Source of the DNA: an uncultured archaeon
GTDB taxonomy: Archaea > Iainarchaeota > Iainarchaeia > Iainarchaeales > VGJJ01
Length of the DNA stretch: 64,000 nt
Assembly (NCBI GenBank): GCA_964480125.1
Contig: CAYZNV010000002.1
Coordinates: forward strand, 4,984 to 68,983
Reading direction: 5' to 3'
Part shown: positions 2,638 to 16,286 of the stretch, piece after piece
Position numbering within the stretch: position 1 is the stretch's first letter
Layout of the letters: each line of letters opens with the position of its first letter
Notes under the pieces: model-generated
What the model was told of the DNA's origin: nothing
Database searches by the model: none
Seen by the model: only the letters and a program-made list of their open reading frames with translations
Program-made: the position numbers and the translations under genes

Positions 2638-3597
2638 TTAATTCGCACGGGCAGACTTGAGCGTTGTAATCGGCCTGCTCTGCGTAATGTAAAATTTTCC
2701 TTTTTCGAATGCCCATTCCACGTCCACGGGAAAACCATCATGGTCTTCAATGCGCAGAATCAATTTCCCTAATTCCATAATCTGTTTTTCGGAGATCTTT
2801 TGCTTGGTTCCTTCCGAGGCGGGAATGTCCTTCCATTCATTCCCTCCTCCTTTTTGGCGGAAAATCCCTTTTCTTTGCATGGAAACATTTTTCTCAATGA
2901 TGACAAGCGGCTTTTTTTCCAACACATACGAGTCTGGAGTGATTTGCCCTGAAACGATGGCTTCTCCCAATCCAAATCCTGCTTCGATAATCATTTGATT
3001 GTAGTCTTGCGTGACTGGGTGTACGGAAAAGGCGACCCCAGATATTTCCGACTGAACCATTTTCTGCACCACGACGGCAACAGAAATATGGGTTTTATGT
3101 AAGCCCTTCTCGAAGCGATAAAAGATAGCCCGCGGCGTGAAAAGCGAAGCCCAGCATTTTTGCACATTTTGCAAGAGCGTTTTCTCCGTAGTGTTGAGGA
3201 AAGTGTCGAGTTGTCCTGCCCATGCAGCTGCCGATGAGTCTTCTGCCGTCGCCGATGAACGAACCGCCACAAATTCCGCTTTCAATTCCTTGAAATATTT
3301 TTTGATTTCATTCGCAATGTCTTTGGGCATCTTTGCGGAAAGAATGAGTGCCTGAATCTCTTCGGAAGCACGTTCGACGGATTCCATTTCTTCTTTTTTT
3401 ACGCGATGCAAGATAGAATCGATTTCAGCTTTGAGTTTGGTTTCTTCGATGAAACGATCAAACGTGGAGGCCAGCACCACATACCCTGGAGGCACGGGAA
3501 TGCCTGCTTGCGTCATTTCCCCTAAAGAAGCGCCTTTTCCTCCAGCAATAGAGGCATCGTGCTTGGAAATCGAGCCAAAAGATCGAATAAAGCCCAT
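2638..3597 (-). CDS. standalone PEP-synthase/PPDK N-terminal ATP-grasp (nucleotide-binding) domain protein
   Basis: 'IAGGKGASLGEM..GIPVPPGYVV', 'VAVRSSATAEDSSAAAWAGQLDTFLN' and 'GVAFSVHPVT' match the PPDK_N domain. The gene is only 319 aa, with no swivel or TIM-barrel domain. Confidence 0.7.
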   Translation of the reverse strand: MGFIRSFGSISKHDASIAGGKGASLGEMTQAGIPVPPGYVVLASTFDRFIEETKLKAEIDSILHRVKKEEMESVERASEEIQALILSAKMPKDIANEIKKYFKELKAEFVAVRSSATAEDSSAAAWAGQLDTFLNTTEKTLLQNVQKCWASLFTPRAIFYRFEKGLHKTHISVAVVVQKMVQSEISGVAFSVHPVTQDYNQMIIEAGFGLGEAIVSGQITPDSYVLEKKPLVIIEKNVSMQRKGIFRQKGGGNEWKDIPASEGTKQKISEKQIMELGKLILRIEDHDGFPVDVEWAFEKGKFYITQSRPITTLKSARAN

Positions 3598-3634
3598 ATA
3601 TTCACTATTATCGCAGCAAAATAAGAATGAATAA

Positions 3635-3651
3635 GTTGTTTATGAAACAAC
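3635..3651. promoter_or_regulatory. 17-bp inverted repeat GTTGTTTATGAAACAAC in the divergent promoter region, candidate operator
   Basis: Perfect 7-bp arms with a 3-bp spacer. It lies between the divergent start codons (3597 minus, 3690 plus) and just upstream of the TATA-like 'cttttaag'. Confidence 0.3.
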
Positions 3652-3689
3652 TATATTGTCTTTTAAGCTATTTGTGTGAACCAGTTGGT

Positions 3690-5462
3690 ATGGATCTCTC
3701 AAAACTGTTCAATTCATCCCGCAGAGCAGCAGTCTTAGAGTCATTGCTCGCGGAGCCTCAAGGCCTTACCGCTTCCGAGTTGGCACGTGGAAAAAGTATT
3801 GATTTGGCTGGAATCACGCGCGAATTAAAAGAATTACAACGCATGCACATCGTTGAAAGTCACACAGTAGAAGGCAAGACTATCTATCAATTCAACAAGC
3901 ACCCAAGCATAGCCGCATTGCAACAATTCATTGGCCAAGCAAGCGTGCAGGATGTATTTACGGAGTTAGAACGCCTACCCAATGGATATTTTCCGTATCA
4001 ATACGAAGCAGCCGACTATGCGCGCATCACGCCAATTGTGAAAGAGTATGTGGGCGTGAATGATTTTACGGCATTTTTCCAATTCAATGAGCAGCGAACC
4101 TATTTGCACGCAGTGAAGAAAAATGAACGCCGTGCGTATGGGAAACGCGCCTATGATAAGCTTTGGGAAAATCCTTCGCGATTGGACCGCGTATCCGATG
4201 AGGTTGAAAAGTTGATTGCAATAGTAGAAAAAAACGCCTCTTCCATCAAAGCAATGAACATCAATGCGCTTCCGACAAAGCAATTGTTATCACTCTTCAC
4301 CAAATATAACAAAGATGCAACCTATTTGTTCCGTTGGGGCTGGGTCCAGAATGCGGATATAGTGGGAGAAGGATGGACCACTCCACTCGTGGCATTTATC
4401 GAATCAAAAATGAAAGGAAAGTCATTTGATAAGAAACCCATTGAAGTGTTTACAACGCTCGTGACCCCTACACAATTATCAAAGTCCCAATTGGACCAAG
4501 CCGAATTGCTTCAGCTCTTGCATGAAATCACTAAAAATAAAGAATTAAAGAAAAAGTTTGAGTTGGATGATGATCACGTAGAGTTTGCACTGCGAAATGA
4601 CCCCATTCTCTCTAAAATCATGCACCACACCAATACGTTTGGGCACTTGACATATGGAACGGGAGGCCCGGGCAATTCTCATCGCGAATATCTAGCGATT
4701 TTATCAGGCTTGGTCAAAAAAAAAGTGGATGCGAGTAAATTAATCCAACAAGAAGATGCCAAAGTGGCCACGCTCAAGAAAGAAATCGCACGCATTGAAT
4801 CGACATTAGCTTTTGATCCAAAGGAATTGGCTTTCTTCAAAGCATTCCGACGCAATACCTTTCTGCGCGCCCTGCGTAAAGACACACTATTCCTTTGGTT
4901 CTCTGCGGCAGATAAACTATTGACCGAATTAGGCAAGCGCTTTGATCGAAGCCTGGATCAAATGCGTTTTGTCGTGCAAGAGGAGTTCATGCAAGGCATT
5001 CCGGATGTACATACACTCCAAGAACGCATGCAAGCCATGGTGTATTACACCACGGAGACGCAAACCATCATTCTGCAAGGAAAAGAAGCCCAAGCATTCA
5101 TGCGTGAATTGCCATTTGAGAAGGACACCGCCGAAAAAGTACAGGAGTTGTATGGGAATTGTGCCTGTCCTGGAATCGCAAAAGGAACAGTCAAAATCAT
5201 CAATACCACGGATGACATCAAGAAGATGAATCAAGGAGATATTCTCGTTTCCTATGCGACCATGCCGGACTTAATGCCAGCAATCCGCAAAGCCGCGGCA
5301 ATCGTGACGGATCAAGGCGGGATTACATGCCATGCGGCTATTGTTTCACGCGAATTAGGCATTCCGTGTATCATTGGCACGAACAAAGCGACTAAAGTGC
5401 TCAAAGACGGCGATTTAGTTGAGGTGAATGCATCTCATGGACGCGTAAAGTTAATGCAATAA
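3690..5462 (+). CDS. wHTH-domain protein with central domain of unknown function and C-terminal PEP-utilizing phospho-His swivel domain
   Basis: C-terminal 'GGITCHAAIVSRELGIPCIIGT' is the PEP-utilizers mobile-domain signature with the His retained. The N-terminus 'LTASELARGKSIDLAGITRELKELQRMHIV' is wHTH-like. The ORF track starts at 3627; Met22 at 3690 fits the promoter spacing better. Confidence 0.6.
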   Translation: MDLSKLFNSSRRAAVLESLLAEPQGLTASELARGKSIDLAGITRELKELQRMHIVESHTVEGKTIYQFNKHPSIAALQQFIGQASVQDVFTELERLPNGYFPYQYEAADYARITPIVKEYVGVNDFTAFFQFNEQRTYLHAVKKNERRAYGKRAYDKLWENPSRLDRVSDEVEKLIAIVEKNASSIKAMNINALPTKQLLSLFTKYNKDATYLFRWGWVQNADIVGEGWTTPLVAFIESKMKGKSFDKKPIEVFTTLVTPTQLSKSQLDQAELLQLLHEITKNKELKKKFELDDDHVEFALRNDPILSKIMHHTNTFGHLTYGTGGPGNSHREYLAILSGLVKKKVDASKLIQQEDAKVATLKKEIARIESTLAFDPKELAFFKAFRRNTFLRALRKDTLFLWFSAADKLLTELGKRFDRSLDQMRFVVQEEFMQGIPDVHTLQERMQAMVYYTTETQTIILQGKEAQAFMRELPFEKDTAEKVQELYGNCACPGIAKGTVKIINTTDDIKKMNQGDILVSYATMPDLMPAIRKAAAIVTDQGGITCHAAIVSRELGIPCIIGTNKATKVLKDGDLVEVNASHGRVKLMQ

Positions 5463-5516: not shown

Positions 5517-5756
5517 ATGAGTGAAGTCGCCATTGTTACTGTCTCCGAGAAAGGTCAAATCGTTTTGCCCAAGAAAATAAGAGATATGTTGAAAATTGGA
5601 GAAGGAACAAAACTTTTTGTGGAAGAAAAGAGAGGACAAATCACGCTGCACAAGATTGAAAACATTGCAGCAGATGCGCCATATTTGCTCTCGCACGAGG
5701 CCCTGGCTGATGATTGGCTTTCCAAGGAAGATGAAGAGGCATGGAAAGATTTGTGA
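5517..5756 (+). CDS. AbrB/MazE/SpoVT-family antitoxin
   Basis: 'VTVSEKGQIVLPKKIRDML' is a swapped-hairpin AbrB-type motif. 79 aa. A TATA-like 'ttttatac' lies about 25 bp upstream. The 3' end overlaps the next gene. Confidence 0.65.
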   Translation: MSEVAIVTVSEKGQIVLPKKIRDMLKIGEGTKLFVEEKRGQITLHKIENIAADAPYLLSHEALADDWLSKEDEEAWKDL

Positions 5757-6067
5757 AAGGAGACGTGGTTGTTCTCCCTTATCCCTTTACGGATTCGTCT
5801 CAAACAAAACGCCGACCTGCACTCATTATCTCGAATCAAGTCAATGAAGATATTATTGCATGTCAAATCACATCCCGAAGTGGGAACAATGCCATTGCAT
5901 TAGGAAAAGAGCATTTTGAGAAAGGAAATTTATCAGCAGAGAGTTACATCAAGCCATTCCATATATTTACCATCAAGACACGCAGAATCTATTACAAAGT
6001 AGGCCAACTCAAGAAACCAAAATGGATAGAAGTATCGAAGGCACTACAAGAATTATTTTCCCCATAA
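5741..6067 (+). CDS. mazF: MazF/PemK-family toxin (endoribonuclease)
   Basis: 'GDVVVLPYPFTDSSQTKRRPALIIS' is the PemK/MazF N-terminal signature. 108 aa. It overlaps the upstream antitoxin gene by 16 nt. Confidence 0.7.
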   Translation: MERFVKGDVVVLPYPFTDSSQTKRRPALIISNQVNEDIIACQITSRSGNNAIALGKEHFEKGNLSAESYIKPFHIFTIKTRRIYYKVGQLKKPKWIEVSKALQELFSP

Positions 6068-6773: not shown

Positions 6774-7403
6774 TTACGATCGCAGCTTGATGGCCTTTAC
6801 CACGTCCACGCGCTTGAGTGGGACGATTTTCTTGGCGACGGCCATGAGTTCATTTCCTCGTTCGCTGATGACGAGGTCGTGAATCAAGTCTTCGTAGGCG
6901 AAGTCTTTGGCGATGCGCGCGACTTCTCCTTTGATGGCAGCACGAATGCCAGCTTCTTGGGCGCGCGTGACTTTGTAGGCGCACATGGCGATGCTTTTGA
7001 TGCGCACGCGCGTGCCGTCTTTACAAACGACATTATCGATGCTTTCCACTTTACTCGAGCGGCGGCGGACCAAGCGCTTGGTTGCAGATGGCTGGATTTG
7101 CAGCGAGTGCAATTTCGTGTTGGCATTCAATCCTTGCACATCATTGACTTGGAAGCGCACCATCAATTGGTTTTTCTTGATGTTTCCGGTCAAGTCGCGT
7201 GCGTTCATGGCGACAACGCGCCCCATCACGGCTTCTTCGTCGATTCCGGGCGTTTGAGCTAATTCGATGTGATTGAAGTGCTTGGATGCGATGACTTTGT
7301 ACCACTTCTTGCTCTTCCATTTGTCGGGACCCTTTCGCTTGCTTTTGACAGCAGTCGTTGCAGCCCCTTTCATGTCTTTTGAATCAATTTCGATGTTTGC
7401 CAT
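6774..7403 (-). CDS. rps3ae: ribosomal protein S3Ae (eS1)
   Basis: 'KGPDKWKSKKWYKVIASKHF' is the archaeal S3Ae N-terminus. 209 aa. Confidence 0.85.
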   Translation of the reverse strand: MANIEIDSKDMKGAATTAVKSKRKGPDKWKSKKWYKVIASKHFNHIELAQTPGIDEEAVMGRVVAMNARDLTGNIKKNQLMVRFQVNDVQGLNANTKLHSLQIQPSATKRLVRRRSSKVESIDNVVCKDGTRVRIKSIAMCAYKVTRAQEAGIRAAIKGEVARIAKDFAYEDLIHDLVISERGNELMAVAKKIVPLKRVDVVKAIKLRS

Positions 7404-9374: not shown

Positions 9375-11771
9375 CTATAATTCCACGGCAATCGTGCTAC
9401 CATATGTAATGGTTTCAATGGAGTGTGCCAATTTGATATCGCGTTCCAATACCTTGAGCGCAAGCGGCAACTGCGCGTGACGAATGGGTGCTTTCAATGA
9501 AAGTCCTTTTTCTTTCTTGGCTTTCCATAGCGCAGAGTTGGCTTGCATGAGGTCTTCGGCGGAAAACAAAACAGTGAATGCGTGTTCGCTTTCTGGATAG
9601 GAAGTGAAATGCACATCCATTTCGTGCAGCGCGGAATAAAGATACGAAGTGAAAATAGGGATAATGGGTGCGTAGAGTTGTAGGAGCGTGTCCAGGCAAT
9701 AGTGCAGCGTGTAAAGTGCTCCATTTTGTTCTTCGATAGAAAAGGTGCCTTGTTCGTTGTACGCGCGATTCTTTACTAATTCCAAATAATGCGAGGCGAA
9801 TGTTTCCCACAAAAAATAACGCAGCTGTGTGGAGGGAGTAAACACATCATAGCGCTCGAATCCTTCTCTGCAGGTTTGGATGAGTCTGGATAGCTCCATG
9901 AGCGCCCATTCATCTGCGGGAAGTAATTTGATTTGTCCTTCGGGGTTCTTGAATGAGGAAACGAAGCGCGCGACATTCCAGAATTTCGTCAGCGTCTTTC
10001 CCGCTCCTTCAATGCGTTCGAAGCTGCACATTAAATCGGTGCGTGCCAGGTTTCCTTCCATTCCCACCCATAATCGAAAGGGTTCCGCTCCGAATTTTTG
10101 GAGTATTTCAGCGGGATCGATGACATTTCCAAGGGACTTCGACATCTTGATTCCTTTTCCATCGAGAATGTGATTGTGAATGAATGCATTCTCGAACAAG
10201 GGCTTTCCGTGGAGCAAGTAGTGCTTGAGCAGTGAATAATACAACCACGTGCGCACGATTTCTTTTCCTTGCGGGCGTAGCGTGCAAGGAGTGTGTTTCA
10301 GGAAGAAGTCGTTTTTCCTTCCTTTTCCGAGCACATACGCGGCCGAATTAGAGGAGTCGAACCACGTGTCAAACACGCGTGTTTCTCCTTTCCATTCAGT
10401 CGAGTGACATTGCGGGCACTCTTCAATAGGGCAAGGGTCTTTCCAGGGTTGGTGGTATTTTCCTTTTGGGGGGACGAATGCATAATTGCACTTCCCACAA
10501 TACCAAATGGGGATTTCCGTTCCGTAGTATCGGCGTCGAGAAATAGGCCAATCAATTTTCACGTTCGCGATCCAGTCCGTGAGGATTTGTTTGGACTCAG
10601 GCGCATGGAATGTGAGTTGGTCCGCGATTTTTTTCATTTCTTCTTTCACGTGGAGCTGCTTCACATACAGTTCGGGCATGGAGATGAATTCAATTTGGTC
10701 TTTGCTACGCTCGCAGATGGGAACGGAGTGCATGATCTTCTTTTGCTGGTGCAACAACCCTTCTTCTTTTATTTTTTCGATTATTTTCTCGCGTGCTTCT
10801 TTTGTTTTCAATCCCTGCAAGAAACCCGCTTCTGCCGTCATGCGGCCCATTTCATCAATGCACCCTTGGGCTTCAATTCCTTGTTCAATCAAGAAGCGAA
10901 TGGCTTCCGTGTCCCCTGCGGAACGAGACATGTATGCGAGGCCCGTTCCAAAATTAGGGTCGGCCATCGTGTGAGGGATGATGGGGATTTCGAATCCATA
11001 TATTGGGACAATGGCTTTCTTGTCTTTGAGGTGCTGATAGCGTTCATCGGTTGGATTGTAGATGATAACGGCTGCCGTACACAAAAGCTCCGGTCGCGTC
11101 GTGGCGATAATGAGTTTTTCCTTCGTAGTGGTTTCGACAAAAATAATTTCATTCAGGAATGTTTCTTTTTCTTTTCTCTCAATCTCACTATCACTCAATG
11201 TCGTGCGACACCCCGGGCAATAGTTGTTGAGGCGCTTGGCTTCATACACGAGTCCTTTGTGCCAGAGATCGATGAACGTGTCCTGCGTAAGCGTTCGATA
11301 TTCTTTGGAATCTGTTTCATACATTTGCCCGAGTTCTTCGCCCACTTTCCATTCGTTGAATCCAATCCCTGCGTGGAAGAATGTTTGCAAGCTGTGCGTC
11401 CCAGCTTCTTTCAACATTTGCGCGCAGTATTCCAAGAATTTTTCGCGGGGCGTTTCGTGCAAGCGGATGTTGTATTTTTTTTCCGCGGCCATTTCAATTG
11501 GGAGACCATTGCGATCCATTCCAAGTGGAAAAATGACATTATGTCCAGTCATGCGCTTGTAGCGCGCGAACATGTCCATAATCACATACGTGGAAGCATG
11601 CCCGATATGCACGGGCGCGTTAATGTAAGGAGGTGGCGTGTCAATGGAGAAAATGGGCAATTGGGGGTTGTGTTTGAATTTGTAAGCCGATTCGTCTTTC
11701 CAGCGCTGAACGATGGGCAATTCCAATTCCTTGGACCAGCGCGTCTCAGTCAAACCAGGCATAATACCCAT
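9375..11771 (-). CDS. valS: valyl-tRNA synthetase (class I aaRS)
   Basis: 'PPPYINAPVHIGHA' is a HIGH-motif variant and 'KMSKSLGN' is the KMSKS motif. Size (798 aa) and the editing domain fit compact archaeal ValRS; LeuRS or IleRS is less likely at this size. Confidence 0.7.
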   Translation of the reverse strand: MGIMPGLTETRWSKELELPIVQRWKDESAYKFKHNPQLPIFSIDTPPPYINAPVHIGHASTYVIMDMFARYKRMTGHNVIFPLGMDRNGLPIEMAAEKKYNIRLHETPREKFLEYCAQMLKEAGTHSLQTFFHAGIGFNEWKVGEELGQMYETDSKEYRTLTQDTFIDLWHKGLVYEAKRLNNYCPGCRTTLSDSEIERKEKETFLNEIIFVETTTKEKLIIATTRPELLCTAAVIIYNPTDERYQHLKDKKAIVPIYGFEIPIIPHTMADPNFGTGLAYMSRSAGDTEAIRFLIEQGIEAQGCIDEMGRMTAEAGFLQGLKTKEAREKIIEKIKEEGLLHQQKKIMHSVPICERSKDQIEFISMPELYVKQLHVKEEMKKIADQLTFHAPESKQILTDWIANVKIDWPISRRRYYGTEIPIWYCGKCNYAFVPPKGKYHQPWKDPCPIEECPQCHSTEWKGETRVFDTWFDSSNSAAYVLGKGRKNDFFLKHTPCTLRPQGKEIVRTWLYYSLLKHYLLHGKPLFENAFIHNHILDGKGIKMSKSLGNVIDPAEILQKFGAEPFRLWVGMEGNLARTDLMCSFERIEGAGKTLTKFWNVARFVSSFKNPEGQIKLLPADEWALMELSRLIQTCREGFERYDVFTPSTQLRYFLWETFASHYLELVKNRAYNEQGTFSIEEQNGALYTLHYCLDTLLQLYAPIIPIFTSYLYSALHEMDVHFTSYPESEHAFTVLFSAEDLMQANSALWKAKKEKGLSLKAPIRHAQLPLALKVLERDIKLAHSIETITYGSTIAVEL

Positions 11772-11852
11772 AAAACGGCAAGAAAGAGGTTTTAAGGCTA
11801 GGGCTGCGAGTGGTGAATACTTATTTTTAAGTGAGAGTAAAGTATTGGTTAT

Positions 11853-11999
11853 ATGGCTTCAATAAATTTTCGAGAAGTAGTTGTCCCAATGGCATTGACC
11901 ATCATTATCATGGGGGCAGTTATCGCTTTTTTTTGGAGTATATTAACGGGCATTGGAATTGGACTCATCGGACTTACCGTTGCAATTGTAAATGGATGA
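11853..11999 (+). CDS. 48-aa hydrophobic micro-protein (two TM-like helices)
   Basis: MASINFREVVVPMALTIIIMGAVIAFFWSILTGIGIGLIGLTVAIVNG. Its stop lies 3 nt before the start of the next membrane-protein gene. It is below the ORF-track length cutoff. Confidence 0.25.
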   Translation: MASINFREVVVPMALTIIIMGAVIAFFWSILTGIGIGLIGLTVAIVNG

Positions 12000-12002
12000 T
12001 CT

Positions 12003-12521
12003 ATGACTACTACTTGGGCTAAAGAGTCTGCAAAGCTCAGATATGATAAAGTCATGAAGTTCACTACTATTTTTACTGTGACAATGCTTGGAGTATTGGC
12101 AGGAATTGTAACACAACATGATGAGGATATTTCTATAACTATTCTCAGAAATCAAAACAGAGATATGTTATTTGCAATAGCTGCCTTTACACTAATTATT
12201 GGATTAATCTTTTCATTATGGAAACTTAGAATGATTGAAAAAATAATGTCAGATGATAAATCCAACGAGTTCAACTCAAAATCAAAAAGACCAACCATCG
12301 GATTAAAGGAATTTTCCGGCTCACTGGTTAACGCAGCAGTTAACGGAATTGAGGGGCTGCAACCAGTAATTTTTCTAATAATTGTTGGACTGTTTTCATT
12401 CGTAATAAGTTTTTCTGGGATACCAAAAATATCCGATTCAGGAGTTTATGTAACAGTGACAGTACTAGCTGCACTTCTAGTTGGATTGGTTTCAGCTTAT
12501 CGACAGTTTGCTGATTATTAG
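12003..12521 (+). CDS. hypothetical membrane protein
   Basis: 172 aa with 3-4 TM helices. It sits in an AT-rich stretch with no recognisable motifs. Confidence 0.4.
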
Positions 12522-13699
12522 AACCCAAATATCCCTTTCTTTCCTTTCTTTGATTTCTTTGAAGTGGATTCAGTAGCAGTATCTTTCCCATGCAGCTCGG
12601 ATTGAAGTTCTTCCAATAGCTCTTTCTGGCGCGACGTGAGGTGAGTAGGAACGTCAATGCGCACGCGCACGAATTCATCCCCATATTCTTCGCTGTTGAG
12701 TTGCTTGATTCCTTTTTCGCGTAGTCGAAAAACTTTTCCATTCTGCGTGCCAGGAGGAATAGTCATCGTGACAGTCCCTCCCAAAACGGGAACGTCGACT
12801 TCTCCCCCCATTGCGGCGAGTGGAAATGAGATGCCTTGTTCCACATACACGTCCGCGCCATCGCGTTTGAATGTTTCATGAGGAGCAACGTGGATTACCA
12901 CATACAAGTCCCCTTGAGCCCCTCCTCCGGGAGTGAAATTTCCCTGATGGGGGACGCGCAAATGATTTCCCGTATCGATGCCCGCAGGGATTTTGATTTC
13001 AATGGAAGAGGTTTTACTCTGAGTCCCTTTTCCTTTGCAGCGCGTGCAGGGTTCTTTGATGATTTCTCCTTCTCCGCCGCATTTTGAACACGTCGCAGTC
13101 GTTTGAAATAATCCAAATGGCGTTCGTTGCGTGCGAGTTTCCATTCCTCTTCCCTTACAAGTAGGGCATTTTTCTTTTTTGCTTCCTTTTTCTGCACCCG
13201 TTCCGTCGCAGTGCTCACATGCGCGCAAGTGGGGGATGGAAATCGTCTTCGTAGCGCCAAAAGCCGCTTCTTCAAAGCTCAATTCCAGGTCATAGCGTAA
13301 ATGTTGGGCTTGGGAGGCACGTCGCGTGCGCGTTCCTCCTCCAAATTGCCCCCCAAATGCTTCGCGCAGCAAATCTTCCATTCCGGGGAAGCCGCTGGCG
13401 CCGCCGTTGAACATATCCGAGAAATCGAATCCTCCCATTCCACCGGGAAAACCCCCTGCTCCGCCGCCCATTCCGGATTTGAATGATTCCGAGCCGAATT
13501 GGTCGTATTGCGCGCGCTTGTTGGCATCAGAGAGAACGGAGTATGCCTCGTTGACTTCTTTGAACTTTTCAGTTGCCTCAGGGGCTTTGTTGATGTCCGG
13601 ATGCCATTTCTTGGCCATTTTCTTGTAGGCGGATTTGAGTTCGTCCGCGGAAGCATTCTTGCTCACCCCTAAAATGGAGTAATAGTCTTTTTCGGCCAT
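12518..13699 (-). CDS. dnaJ: chaperone DnaJ (Hsp40)
   Basis: J-domain '[11 protein letters not shown]', G/F-rich region and four CxxCxGxG zinc-finger repeats. The ORF track extends to 13750; Met18 is the likely start. Confidence 0.9.
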
Positions 13700-13825
13700 A
13701 GTGGAATCACGTGATAATGGAATAAAAATGCGGGCATGCGCGAAGCGCAAACACTCCCATTAGATTAGTAGCATCAAGCCGCAGTGAATGGGCGCGTGCG
13801 CTGAAGCACGGCCTTTCCATTGCGT

Positions 13826-15691
13826 CTAATGATCTTTAACTTTGAATTCCGCATCGACGGAATCAGTGGGGTTTGAATCATCATTGCCTCCTTCGTTGCT
13901 TTCTTCATTCGACTGCGCTCCTGCATTAGGAGAAGCACCTTGTTTTTGATAGATTTCTTGTCCGACTTGCTGCACAGTCTTGTTGAATTTCTCCAATGCG
14001 GATTTGATTTCCTTGAAGGGTTTGGGTTCTTTTCCGAGCAAGTCCTTCAATTCTTTCAATCCGTCTTGGATTTTCTGCTTCGTGGAAGCGGAGATTTTGT
14101 CCTTCATGTCTTCCAGCATCTTTTCGGTTTGGTAGACAGTGGAATCCGCTTGATTCACTGTTTCGACTTCTTCGCGTTTCTGCTTATCTGCCTCCGAGAA
14201 TTCTTCTGCCATCTTACGCATGTGCTCGACTTCTTTTTCATCGAGCTTTTGTGCAGCAATGATTTGGATCTTTTGCTCTTTGCCCGTTCCCATGTCCTTC
14301 GCCGTCACGTGCAAAATTCCATTCGCATCGATGTCGAACGTCACTTCGATTTGGGGAACGCCACGCGGAGCAGGTGGAATCCCTTGCAGCGCGAATGTTC
14401 CAAGGAGTTTATTGTCGTGCGCCATGGTTCTTTCTCCTTGGAATACTTTGATGTCCACTGCAGGCTGGTTGTCGGCAGCCGTGGAGAATATTTGGCTCTT
14501 CTTGTGGGGAATAGTGGTGTTGCGCTCGATGAGCTTGGTCATCACTCCTCCGAGGGTTTCGATTCCCAGCGAGAGAGGGGTTACATCTAACAGCAACACA
14601 TCCTTGACTTCTCCCGAGAGCACGCCAGCTTGTACAGCCGCCCCCATCGCGACGCATTCCATGGGATCCACGCCGCGCTCGACTTTCGTCCCTAAAATCT
14701 TTTCCACAAATTGTTGCACGATAGGCATGCGCGTTGGACCGCCAACCATGATGATTTTGTGGATGTCCCCGGGCGTGAGTTTTGCATCCGCAATGGCCTG
14801 CATCACGGGCTTTTCGCAGCGCTTCACAATGGGAGAGATTAATTCTTCCAGCTTGGCGCGGTTGAATTTCATGACGAGGTGTTTAGGCCCAGATGCATCC
14901 GCGGTGATGTAAGGCAGATTGATGTCCGTTTCCAGTGTAGTGGAGAGTTCGATCTTTCCTCGTTCGGCTGCCTCGCGTACGCGCTGCATCGCAGTAGCAT
15001 CTTTAGTCAGATCGACTCCATCCGTGCGCTTGAATTCCGCCACCATCCAGTCGATAATGACCTTGTCCATATCCGTTCCGCCGAGTTGCGTATCCCCGGA
15101 GGTCGATTTGACTTCGAAGATACCATCGCCGAACTCCATAATCGTGACGTCGAGCGTTCCCCCGCCTAAATCGAACACGAGAATTTTCTGTTCGGCATTT
15201 TTCTTGTCCAGTCCATAAGCTAAGGAAGCGGCCGTGGGTTCATTCACGATGCGGATAACATCCAATCCCGCAATCTTTCCTGCATCTTTAGTGGCTTGGC
15301 GTTGGTTATCATCAAAGTAAGCAGGAACTGTAATCACGGCTTTCTCCACTTTTTCTCCCAAGAACGCTTCGGCGTCCTTCTTTATTTTCTGCAAAATAAA
15401 GGCAGAGATTTGCTGGGGAGTGTATTCTTTTCCGTGCACCTTGTACGTGTGATTCGTCCCCATCTTTCGCTTGGCAGCCATAATCGTCCCATTGGGATTG
15501 GAAACGGCTTGTCTTCGCGCGGGTTCTCCCACAAGGAGCTGACCATCTTTCGTGAATGCAACAACCGAGGGAAAGGCCTTTCCATAGAGCGTGTTCCCTT
15601 CCGCGGATGGAATAATGCGTGGCTTTCCTGCTTCTAATACCGCGGCAGCGGAGTTGCTGGTTCCTAAATCGATTCCGATAATCTTACTCAT
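13826..15691 (-). CDS. dnaK: chaperone DnaK (Hsp70)
   Basis: '[15 protein letters not shown]' and 'DLGGGTLDV' are Hsp70 signatures. The internal Met at 15691 sits 1 nt from the grpE stop. Confidence 0.95.
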
Positions 15692-15692
15692 G

Positions 15693-16286
15693 TTAGTTTC
15701 CCCCTTTGGTTGCGTCGTGCGACGCGTGAGCGTTTGTTTCTTTTTCATTTACTGCATTTACTTTTACTTTGGCCGTGCGCAGCACGTGGTCGTTGAATGT
15801 GTATCCTCTCTGGAATTCCTCCAATACGATTTCATCTCCCTGCATGGGATCATTTCCCTGCATGAGGCACTCCTGCGTCTCGGGATTGAATTTCTTTCCC
15901 AGCGCAGGAATGGTTTTGATTCCATTGCGCTCGAGTATCTTCATCAACTGCACGCGCAGGTTTTCCAATCCCTTGCGATGATCATCCTTCACATGCGCAA
16001 TAGCCGCGTCGAATGAGTCGATGAATTCGAGGACTTCCTTGAACGCTAATGATTTTCCATATTGGATGGATTGTTCTTTTTCTTTGGCCGTGCGTTTCTG
16101 GTAATTCTCAAATTCCGCTTGCGTGCGCTTGAGAGTATCAATCAAATCCATTTTCTCATTCTGCAGTGTTTCGACTGCGAGTGGTTTTTGATTTTTCTCG
16201 TTTGCTCCAGAGACATTTCCATTTGGCGCGGGATTTGTTTTCGCTGTTTCTTTTTCTGTCATGGCATTCAGCTCCAATCCATCCAA
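15693..16286 (-). CDS. grpE: nucleotide exchange factor GrpE
   Basis: 197 aa with a coiled-coil N-terminus and a C-terminal GrpE beta domain. It lies directly upstream of dnaK. Confidence 0.85.

Follow-up and report, generated by a model that had tools for sequence, protein, structure and literature searches.

Two divergently transcribed genes lie at positions 2638 to 5462 of the 64-kb stretch of contig CAYZNV010000002.1 that we analysed (hereafter the window), which derives from an uncultured archaeon of the Iainarchaeota. The gene on the minus strand encodes a stand-alone ATP-grasp protein. The gene on the plus strand encodes a protein in which a winged helix-turn-helix (wHTH), a long helical domain, and a phospho-histidine swivel follow one another, and a palindrome conserved in relatives lies between the two genes. 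A first-pass annotation of this DNA had compared the arrangement to the three-part logic of rifampin phosphotransferase (RPH), distributed over two genes. This comparison holds, as the two proteins match the profiles of both catalytic domains and RPH is the best fold match of the plus-strand protein. The relatives used throughout are the corresponding locus of 'Candidatus Iainarchaeum archaeon' (CP064981.1, a complete 1.05-Mb DPANN genome), here called L001, and a locus in the archaeal metagenome-assembled genome GCA_040960315.1, here called L007. The features of the window locus are the following:

2638..3597, minus strand: stand-alone ATP-grasp (PPDK_N) subunit gene, 319 aa, putative 'I/B' component of a two-component dikinase
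3598..3689, no strand: divergent intergenic region, 92 bp, with both putative promoters and the candidate operator
3617..3627, minus strand: putative TATA box of the ATP-grasp gene, CAAAATAAGAA (TTCTTATTTTG on the minus strand), 20-30 bp 5' of its ATG
3634..3652, no strand: candidate palindromic operator AGTTGTTT-ATG-AAACAACT, with perfect 8-nt arms (3634-3641 and 3645-3652) and a 3-nt spacer
3656..3668, plus strand: putative promoter of the plus gene, ATTGTYTT then TATA-like TTTTAAG, 22-34 bp 5' of ATG 3690, conserved with L001
3690..5462, plus strand: gene of the winged-helix / RPH-like substrate-domain / His-swivel subunit, 590 aa, putative 'H/A' component
3690..3953, plus strand: N-terminal winged helix-turn-helix, residues ~1-88, model secondary structure H-H-H-H-E-E-H
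3954..5144, plus strand: middle domain, residues ~89-485, mostly helical, with the fold of the RPH rifampin-binding domain in the model; presumed acceptor-substrate site
5145..5459, plus strand: C-terminal phospho-histidine swivel (PF00391 PEP-utilizers, E 4e-25)

The longest plus-strand open reading frame (ORF) of the pair spans 3627-5462. We placed the start at ATG 3690, which yields a protein of 590 aa and leaves 93 bp between the divergent start codons, the distance first reported, because orthologues begin at this position (MNLSKLFNS in L001, MNLELLFNS in P0009, MDFTKLFNS in P0010) and the ORF of L001 does not extend further upstream. ATG 3627 and ATG 3642 are disfavoured as starts because both lie upstream of the conserved putative plus promoter block. 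The database entry P0001 (606 aa), which begins at ATG 3642 inside the palindrome, probably has the wrong start. Meanwhile, the Iainarchaeum orthologue (L001 7437-9212) is annotated as a protein of 403 aa (P0002); its actual ORF, winged helix included, has 591 aa.

The ATP-grasp and swivel subunits

The 319-aa protein consists of an ATP-grasp domain and nothing else, as the first-pass annotation had stated. PF01326 (PPDK_N) was its sole Pfam match (E 1.8e-98), and it covered profile positions 3-316 of 328. In a PDB sequence search, residues 3-315 aligned with the ATP-grasp domain of the Listeria enzyme RPH-Lm (E 6e-64) and, full length over the same residues, with 9GOJ (E 6e-54), the structure of HpeI (PMC12167813). 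The protein is 88% identical to its L001 orthologue (residues 1-313) and 71% identical to the PPDK_N domain of L007. The ratio of nonsynonymous to synonymous substitution rates (dN/dS) between the window and L001 was 0.04; for this pair of genomes, ribosomal protein S3Ae gave 0.044 and DUF92 gave 0.02. Hence, this gene is under purifying selection as strong as that acting on S3Ae.

Homologues of the ATP-grasp protein were abundant, with 7687 among 8000 scored candidates reaching E<=1e-40. In all 120 best matches PF01326 stood alone; most of these proteins were 313-345 aa long and the matches were 66-75% identical, with Patescibacteria and Woesearchaeota among their named sources. Judging from these homologues, the stand-alone form of 319 aa is the standard architecture of the family. 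The identity of 66-75% between a DPANN archaeon and Patescibacteria suggests inter-domain transfer, extreme constraint, or both.

The plus-strand protein is 72% identical to its L001 orthologue. We modelled it with AlphaFold2 from an alignment of 80 sequences (predicted local distance difference test, pLDDT, 93; predicted template modelling score, pTM, 0.86). Its winged helix is weak in the single sequence, with HTH_20 at E 0.003 and all single-sequence matches under the Pfam gathering scores. Members of the family match HTH_IclR, HTH_20, HTH_5, and MarR_2 (Pfam; down to E 1.6e-5), and the first 88 modelled residues match winged helices from SmtB, CzrA, MarR, ArsR, and AF1382 with target-normalized template modelling scores (TMt) of 0.6-0.75, so that the proposed winged helix is recovered both from the family and from the model. 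Residues S9, R12, D38, E45, L46, and L49 are unchanged or almost unchanged across 21 wHTH homologues. PADLOC matched the winged helix to PDC-M05A wHTH (E 5e-8); as this was a match at the level of the wHTH only and no system was assigned, we dropped a defence-system reading.

The swivel carries its catalytic histidine at H548 (590-aa numbering; codon 5331-5333), within GGITCHAAIVSRELGIPCIIG, and the GGITCH motif is intact, in agreement with the first description. It aligned with the phosphoenolpyruvate (PEP) synthase 8A8E at E 1e-27, with GGxTCHAAIVSRELGIP aligned. Neither protein of the pair matched the TIM barrel PF02896, which had already been noted as missing. The full catalytic swivel signature is kept in 17 of the 21 wHTH members. 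The catalytic histidine and the GG loop have been lost in P0050, P0076, P0078, and P0103, which keep the wHTH and the middle domain. This part of the protein can thus be retained alone, which supports a regulatory function for it.

The region between winged helix and swivel had been described as a ~400-aa domain without known family, and no Pfam family was found over residues ~89-485 in the plus protein or in 80 relatives. Its identity was indicated by the fold. The six best PDB matches of the model in Foldseek were all RPH-Lm (E 5e-14 to 1e-11), with query-normalized scores (TMq) of 0.36-0.51 and alignments that span 475-665 columns at 14-16% identity; proteins that share the swivel only (pyruvate phosphate dikinase (PPDK), pyruvate kinase, enzyme I) reached TMq ~0.16. 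The family profile also aligned to RPH residues 625-866, which is ~140 residues past the swivel, whereas PEP synthases aligned over the swivel only. Because RPH-Lm tops the fold matches and the profile reaches beyond the swivel, we regard the modelled middle domain as similar to the RPH substrate domain. This match, by fold and in its C-terminal part by profile, separates it from the central region of PEP synthase or PPDK, as the first-pass annotation had supposed. Conserved motifs of the domain are LTTP, GPG(W/N), and RKD. The NCBIfam model PRK08296, a curated family of ~600-aa proteins in which an uncharacterised domain precedes a swivel, scored the plus protein at 100 bits (cut-off 578), over the swivel only, and hhalign of the family profile against the PRK08296 member P0007 likewise aligned nothing but the swivel. 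By these alignments, the substrate subunit forms a branch separate from the PRK08296 family.

The intergenic region and its palindrome

The intergenic region is identical to L001 at 52 of its 92 window positions, and these identities cluster in three blocks: the TATA-like block on the minus side, the palindrome, and the block on the plus side. The block CAAAATAAGAA is identical at 11 of 11 positions, and a role as TATA box is suggested by its position and composition only. On the other side of the palindrome, the block at 3656..3668 is a putative promoter, whose TATA-like part falls ~22-29 bp upstream of ATG 3690.

The palindrome was first described as a 17-bp element between the genes. This core, GTTGTTTATGAAACAAC, is present at 3635-3651; the perfect arms really measure 8 nt each, and the element is conserved in relatives. 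The degenerate pattern GTTGTYTNNNARACAAC has one match in the 64 kb and none in 100 dinucleotide-preserving shuffles. The centre of the palindrome, at 3643, is the midpoint of the start codons at 3597 and 3690, and the centre of the L001 palindrome, at 7389, likewise lies midway between starts at 7343 and 7437. The arms read GTTGTTT-ATG-AAACAAC in the window and GTTGTCT-TTT-AGACAAC in L001. The two arm differences (T>C and A>G) fall at mirror positions, and dyad symmetry is thereby preserved in L001.

Related sites of the TGTTT-N3-AAACA type were found upstream of the wHTH genes of L007 and L005, whose proteins are ~29-37% identical to that of the window. L007 has four TGTTT-type palindromic sites within 92 bp, three with a spacer of 3 nt and one with 1 nt, centred at approximately -107, -87, -47.5, and -28 relative to the wHTH gene. 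In L005 (P0010), one copy, GAGTTT-TTT-AAACTC, is centred at -46 and another, AGTTTATTAAGCT, at -27. The more distant loci L006, L008, and L010 have different palindromes upstream, which would be weakly consistent with co-evolution of regulator and operator.

Two further sites were observed. The L006 protein P0103 (5299-7083), one of the members without the catalytic histidine, is encoded on a bacterial-looking contig (penicillin-binding protein, SufB), and upstream of its gene TTGTTAATA-N3-TATTAACAA forms a palindrome with perfect 9-nt arms, centred 15 bp 5' of the start codon. In L018/L019, WGTTTNNNAAACW matched at 4414-4426, between an MreB gene and the first gene of a middle domain plus swivel and ~10-20 bp 5' of the longer call of that gene; this is either a related operator or a chance match. 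A metagenome scan for the exact pattern of TATA block plus palindrome gave no match.

We provisionally rejected an RNA hairpin as the explanation of the palindrome, since the element sits between the TATA-like blocks, 5' of both presumed transcription starts. At this location it is probably untranscribed, and a DNA operator for a dimeric winged helix fits better. The palindrome abuts both presumed regions of TATA box and TFB recognition element (BRE), a position that suggests simultaneous repression of both genes; activation would also be possible.

Modular relatives in archaea and bacteria

A family search with residues 1-475 of the plus protein (the swivel left out), exhaustive over representatives, returned 359 clusters at E<=0.001. 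Word-indexed searches with the plus protein and with the family profile found 8 and 6 proteins only. Most members of the family are ~500-520 aa long and lack the winged helix. The wHTH type (~600 aa, aligned from residue 1) accounted for 19 among the 150 clusters listed, of 359, and the fusion occurs both in DPANN archaea and in bacteria of the candidate phyla radiation (CPR). Other members are giants with two to four repeats of middle domain plus swivel, with or without PPDK_N (P0011, P0055 of 2309 aa, and P0142). P0055 comprises four swivels and a PPDK_N domain, P0011 three modules, and in P0101 a module is fused to a HAD hydrolase. We know of no earlier description of proteins of this kind, with one ATP-grasp domain and many swivels. 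Meanwhile, a locus search with the four closest sequences returned only the Iainarchaeum genome from the genome collection and nothing from the metagenome collection, so the closest clade is rare in these collections.

We inspected four stand-alone ATP-grasp genes in their context. Each was clustered with one to at least five genes for a middle domain plus swivel, which encode ~350-510 aa and are homologous to the plus protein of the window. Among the module proteins of L012, L016, and L001, some match middle domain and swivel (30-33% identity over 350-446 aa) and others the C-terminal part and the swivel only. The minus-strand orthologue of L001 is itself a protein of 672 aa, composed of PPDK_N, a short middle domain, and a swivel, and a third gene of that locus encodes 357 aa with a short middle domain and swivel. 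In L007, the wHTH gene, whose product P0009 is 37% identical to the window protein over its full length (MAFFT codon alignment), is followed at 9817-15855 by an uninterrupted ORF of 2012 aa that encodes PPDK_N and then four modules of short middle domain and swivel. Modules are found either as separate genes or in fused giants, up to ~2300 aa.

In each of the three archaea that make up the closest clade (the window, L001, and L007), the wHTH gene adjoins a gene with a PPDK_N domain. In none of them does the wHTH protein have an ATP-grasp domain of its own, and charging in trans would thus be the normal condition of this protein. From this comparison, the pair of the window appears as the minimal form of a widespread CPR/DPANN system in which one ATP-grasp subunit is combined with one to five modules. 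The first-pass annotation had left out this abundance in CPR and DPANN, the fusion of the ATP-grasp domain to one or four extra modules in the closest relatives, and the two-component RPHs already known.

Phosphatase genes recur in the clusters. A metallophosphoesterase is encoded in L012 (8582-9178) and L007 (15852-16802), and RHG-motif proteins of the histidine phosphatase superfamily in L016, L018 (7037-7615), and L020 (11761-12678); L016 also encodes a HAD phosphatase, and its two phosphatase-type genes (HAD, RHG-motif) occupy 9991-10590 and 12120-12998. Their targets may be the phosphorylated product or the phospho-histidine. The window and L001 have no phosphatase gene nearby. Apart from RHG-motif phosphatases, the unannotated neighbours of ~280-300 aa found beside distant homologues were unrelated to ATP-grasp proteins and to each other. 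P0003 (520 aa, no winged helix; L002/L003) is encoded between genes for a PfkB-family (adenosine/ribokinase-like) kinase and an S-adenosylhomocysteine hydrolase, and this paralogue may be linked to nucleoside or S-adenosylhomocysteine metabolism.

The wider neighbourhood is collinear with CP064981.1 at a nucleotide identity of 74-84%. The shared order runs from SecD/F, CDP-archaeol synthase, and an S49 peptidase through the two dikinase genes to DUF92, ribosomal proteins S3Ae and S15, a Bud32-like kinase, and a class I tRNA synthetase. A tblastn search found no further coding sequence for PPDK_N or swivel in the 64-kb window. The S49 peptidase gene (plus strand) ends at 2637 and the convergent ATP-grasp gene (minus strand) at 2638, so that their stop codons touch with no spacer, and the same junction is seen in L001 (5324/5325), though the minus gene there is 1.06 kb longer. 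Directly downstream of the plus gene are two overlapping ORFs:

5517-6067 of the window: MazE-type antitoxin, 79 aa (PF04014, E 2e-10), and PemK/MazF toxin, 108 aa (PF02452, E 5e-15)

This toxin-antitoxin pair occupies the position of the third module gene of L001. In the CPR loci L018/L019, which are unrelated, the dikinase cluster is likewise followed by a MazE/PemK pair (10377-10975).

Interpretation and comparison with known systems

On balance, we favour the reading that this pair is a two-component ATP-dependent small-molecule dikinase, of the type of RPH, PpsAB, CreHI, and HpeHI, which works as a self-regulating 'trigger enzyme'. In the proposed mechanism, the 319-aa protein would bind ATP and phosphorylate His548 of the 590-aa protein in trans, a step modelled on the homologous HpeHI and PpsAB. 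Within this protein, the swivel would then move the phosphoryl group to the RPH-like helical domain, where a small-molecule acceptor would receive it (ATP + X + H2O -> AMP + Pi + X-P). A dimer of the 590-aa subunit would bind AGTTGTTT-N3-AAACAACT through its winged helix and control both promoters. It would most likely be a repressor, relieved when substrate or phosphorylation alters its conformation, following a one-component logic. Because the subunit has a predicted DNA-binding domain and the conserved palindrome lies midway between the genes, the enzyme probably controls its own production. Small-molecule phosphorylation with autoregulation was among the roles that the first-pass annotation had suggested, and the analysis supports it.

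Several points weigh against this reading. The RPH, PRK08296, and PEP-synthase models of NCBIfam match the plus protein over the swivel only. Winged helices on archaeal enzymes can be modules for dimerization or protein interaction. AT-rich intergenic DNA often contains palindromes, and the short 13-mer core of this one is not unusual, with at least one match in 28 of 100 shuffles. Further paralogues of the swivel module may exist elsewhere in the genome, beyond the 64 kb. Co-inheritance of the two genes, a check suggested in the first-pass annotation, stands for the window, L001, and L007, where they are adjacent, but no ATP-grasp neighbour was seen at the distant wHTH loci L005, L006, L008/L009, L010, and L022; several of these contigs are short.

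The main alternative, which we consider possible but rather unlikely, is that the 590-aa protein is primarily a transcription factor controlled by phosphorylation. The ATP-grasp protein would be its 'kinase' and the phospho-histidine of the swivel would set DNA binding, with the middle domain as sensor or scaffold and no phosphorylated product; the state read out might be ATP/AMP or the competition of modules for the ATP-grasp subunit. This logic resembles the control of PRD regulators by the phosphotransferase system (PTS). It would account for the wHTH and the conserved palindrome, and also for the four members that have lost the catalytic histidine and retain wHTH and middle domain, for which a non-catalytic function is possible. 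In relatives, the wHTH paralogue stands beside an ATP-grasp domain that already has one to four modules of its own, like the regulator of a cluster, and the RHG-motif phosphatases of related clusters could reset the phospho-histidine. However, no swivel module other than the wHTH paralogue remains beside the ATP-grasp gene of the window, which leaves only the pair itself to regulate. The RPH-like fold is kept, the motifs LTTP, GPG, and RKD are common to enzyme-like paralogues without wHTH, and 17 of 21 wHTH members retain the full catalytic signature.

A broader version of such control, to which we give a somewhat smaller chance still, is a PTS-like network in which one ATP-grasp donor charges one to five or more swivel modules and the wHTH paralogue provides the transcriptional read-out. 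If so, the occupancy of the phospho-histidine or the state of the ligand would report phosphoryl flux or substrate supply to the promoter. Such a network would represent an unrecognised form of regulatory phosphotransfer, built from dikinase parts, in the two largest radiations of ultra-small microbes.

We consider it improbable that the pair is a resistance kinase, that is, a split RPH that would phosphorylate and so inactivate a rifamycin-like compound or another toxin from a host or competitor, with a drug-binding subunit that induces its own synthesis. This would be a special case of the dikinase that we favour, with little specific support. Self-induction by the bound drug is common among resistance genes, and among solved structures RPH-Lm alone matches the middle domain. 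The wide family of small-molecule dikinases to which RPH belongs includes members that act on antibiotics (PMC12167813). Nevertheless, against the RPH equivalogs NF041857 / NF000283 (cut-off 999) the ATP-grasp protein scored 288 bits and the plus protein 60 bits (swivel only), and the identity in the fold alignments is low. An expansion to as many as five or more paralogues in one cluster, in reduced genomes and alongside phosphatases, looks more like metabolism or salvage than a response to one drug. In addition, archaeal RNA polymerase is no classical target of rifampin.

The idea that the two genes are decaying remnants of a fused multi-domain enzyme, at a locus on its way to becoming a pseudogene, is largely refuted, and we give it very little credence. 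Fused forms do exist, as the first-pass annotation had considered: the fused L001 orthologue is 88% identical to the window protein over residues 1-313, and the window lacks ~1.1 kb equivalent to L001 5285-6405. The final codons resemble each other (K-S-A-R-A-N* versus K-R-A-H-A*), and an in-frame internal deletion in the window lineage apparently fits, with a short signal and an unproven direction. The third module gene of L001 is also replaced by MazEF in the window. Decay itself fails as an explanation, because the ATP-grasp ORF is complete, its dN/dS is 0.04, and its 319-aa form is standard in the family, shared with abundant stand-alone homologues and with HpeI; the plus gene is full-length with all motifs, and the promoter and operator regions are conserved. 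Finally, a split PEP synthase or PPDK that makes PEP from pyruvate is refuted for these two proteins even though PEP synthases are the best sequence matches of both ATP-grasp and swivel and the swivel GGxTCH, with its regulatory Thr, is of PEP-synthase type, given that PF02896 is absent from both (the barrel was not searched for across the 64 kb), that they score 331 and 135 bits against NF005057 (cut-off 598), and that the middle domain has the RPH fold.

The dikinase reading has implications for the annotation of ultra-small microbes. In CPR and DPANN genomes, genes that bear the label 'pyruvate, water dikinase' or 'PEP/pyruvate-binding domain protein' could be miscounted as gluconeogenic PEP synthases. 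Such genes are probably mis-annotated ATP-grasp subunits of modular RPH-like dikinases. An identity of ~70% across the divide between bacteria and archaea, along with paralogues and phosphatases in reduced genomes, points to an important physiological role, for which salvage, detoxification, and signalling are candidates. The window presents the simplest version of the system, with one ATP-grasp protein, one module, a wHTH, and a candidate operator. This makes it a tractable entry point for finding the substrate and for asking whether a dikinase doubles as a transcription factor.

The coupling that we propose is reminiscent of trigger enzymes such as BirA, PutA, and NadR, which are fusions of enzyme and repressor. 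As in those proteins, a catalytic protein would act at its own promoter through its own helix-turn-helix. The comparison is one of logic, as the pair has no relation to them in sequence or fold. PEP synthase and PPDK contain homologous ATP-grasp and swivel domains and provide the closest sequence matches for both; the window pair differs from them in having a helical domain of RPH type instead of the TIM barrel, in being split, and in the added wHTH. RPH itself (RPH-Lm; 5FBS/5FBT/5FBU/5HV1) shares the ATP-grasp domain, the helical substrate domain, and the His swivel, and is the best and only multi-domain structural match of the plus protein. Unlike the window proteins, whose parts are placed on two genes, RPH is a single chain of 865 aa without a DNA-binding domain.

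The split design of an ATP-grasp protein and a protein of substrate domain plus swivel is already known and biochemically characterised. Dexter et al. 2025 characterised HpeHI and placed it with CreHI and the phenylphosphate synthase PpsAB among 'two-component' RPH homologues, in which HpeI is a stand-alone ATP-grasp protein and HpeH comprises an RPH-like substrate domain and a swivel (PMC12167813). The activity of HpeHI requires both components and is abolished by substitution of the conserved histidine, HpeH alone catalyses phosphoryl exchange between substrates, and HpeH, PpsA, and CreH are ~45% identical to one another (PMC12167813). The window pair shares with these systems an ATP-grasp protein of ~320-340 aa and a protein of ~600 aa with RPH-like domain and swivel, encoded by adjacent genes, and by analogy a ping-pong mechanism through the phospho-histidine would be expected here too. 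We likened the plus protein to HpeH, PpsA, and CreH by architecture, and made the sequence comparison with PRK08296 instead. In contrast to these systems, the window pair has an N-terminal winged helix, its genes diverge around a shared candidate operator, its swivel is of PEP-synthase type (GGxTCH), and the host organisms belong to DPANN archaea and CPR bacteria rather than to degraders of aromatic compounds. In the searchable literature we found no description of the CPR/DPANN branch with its one-to-many modular clusters, nor of a winged-helix-fused subunit with a conserved central operator. Set beside the known two-component dikinases, the new element at this locus is, as far as the sequences tell, the fusion of a winged helix to the substrate subunit, together with a conserved and centrally placed candidate operator.

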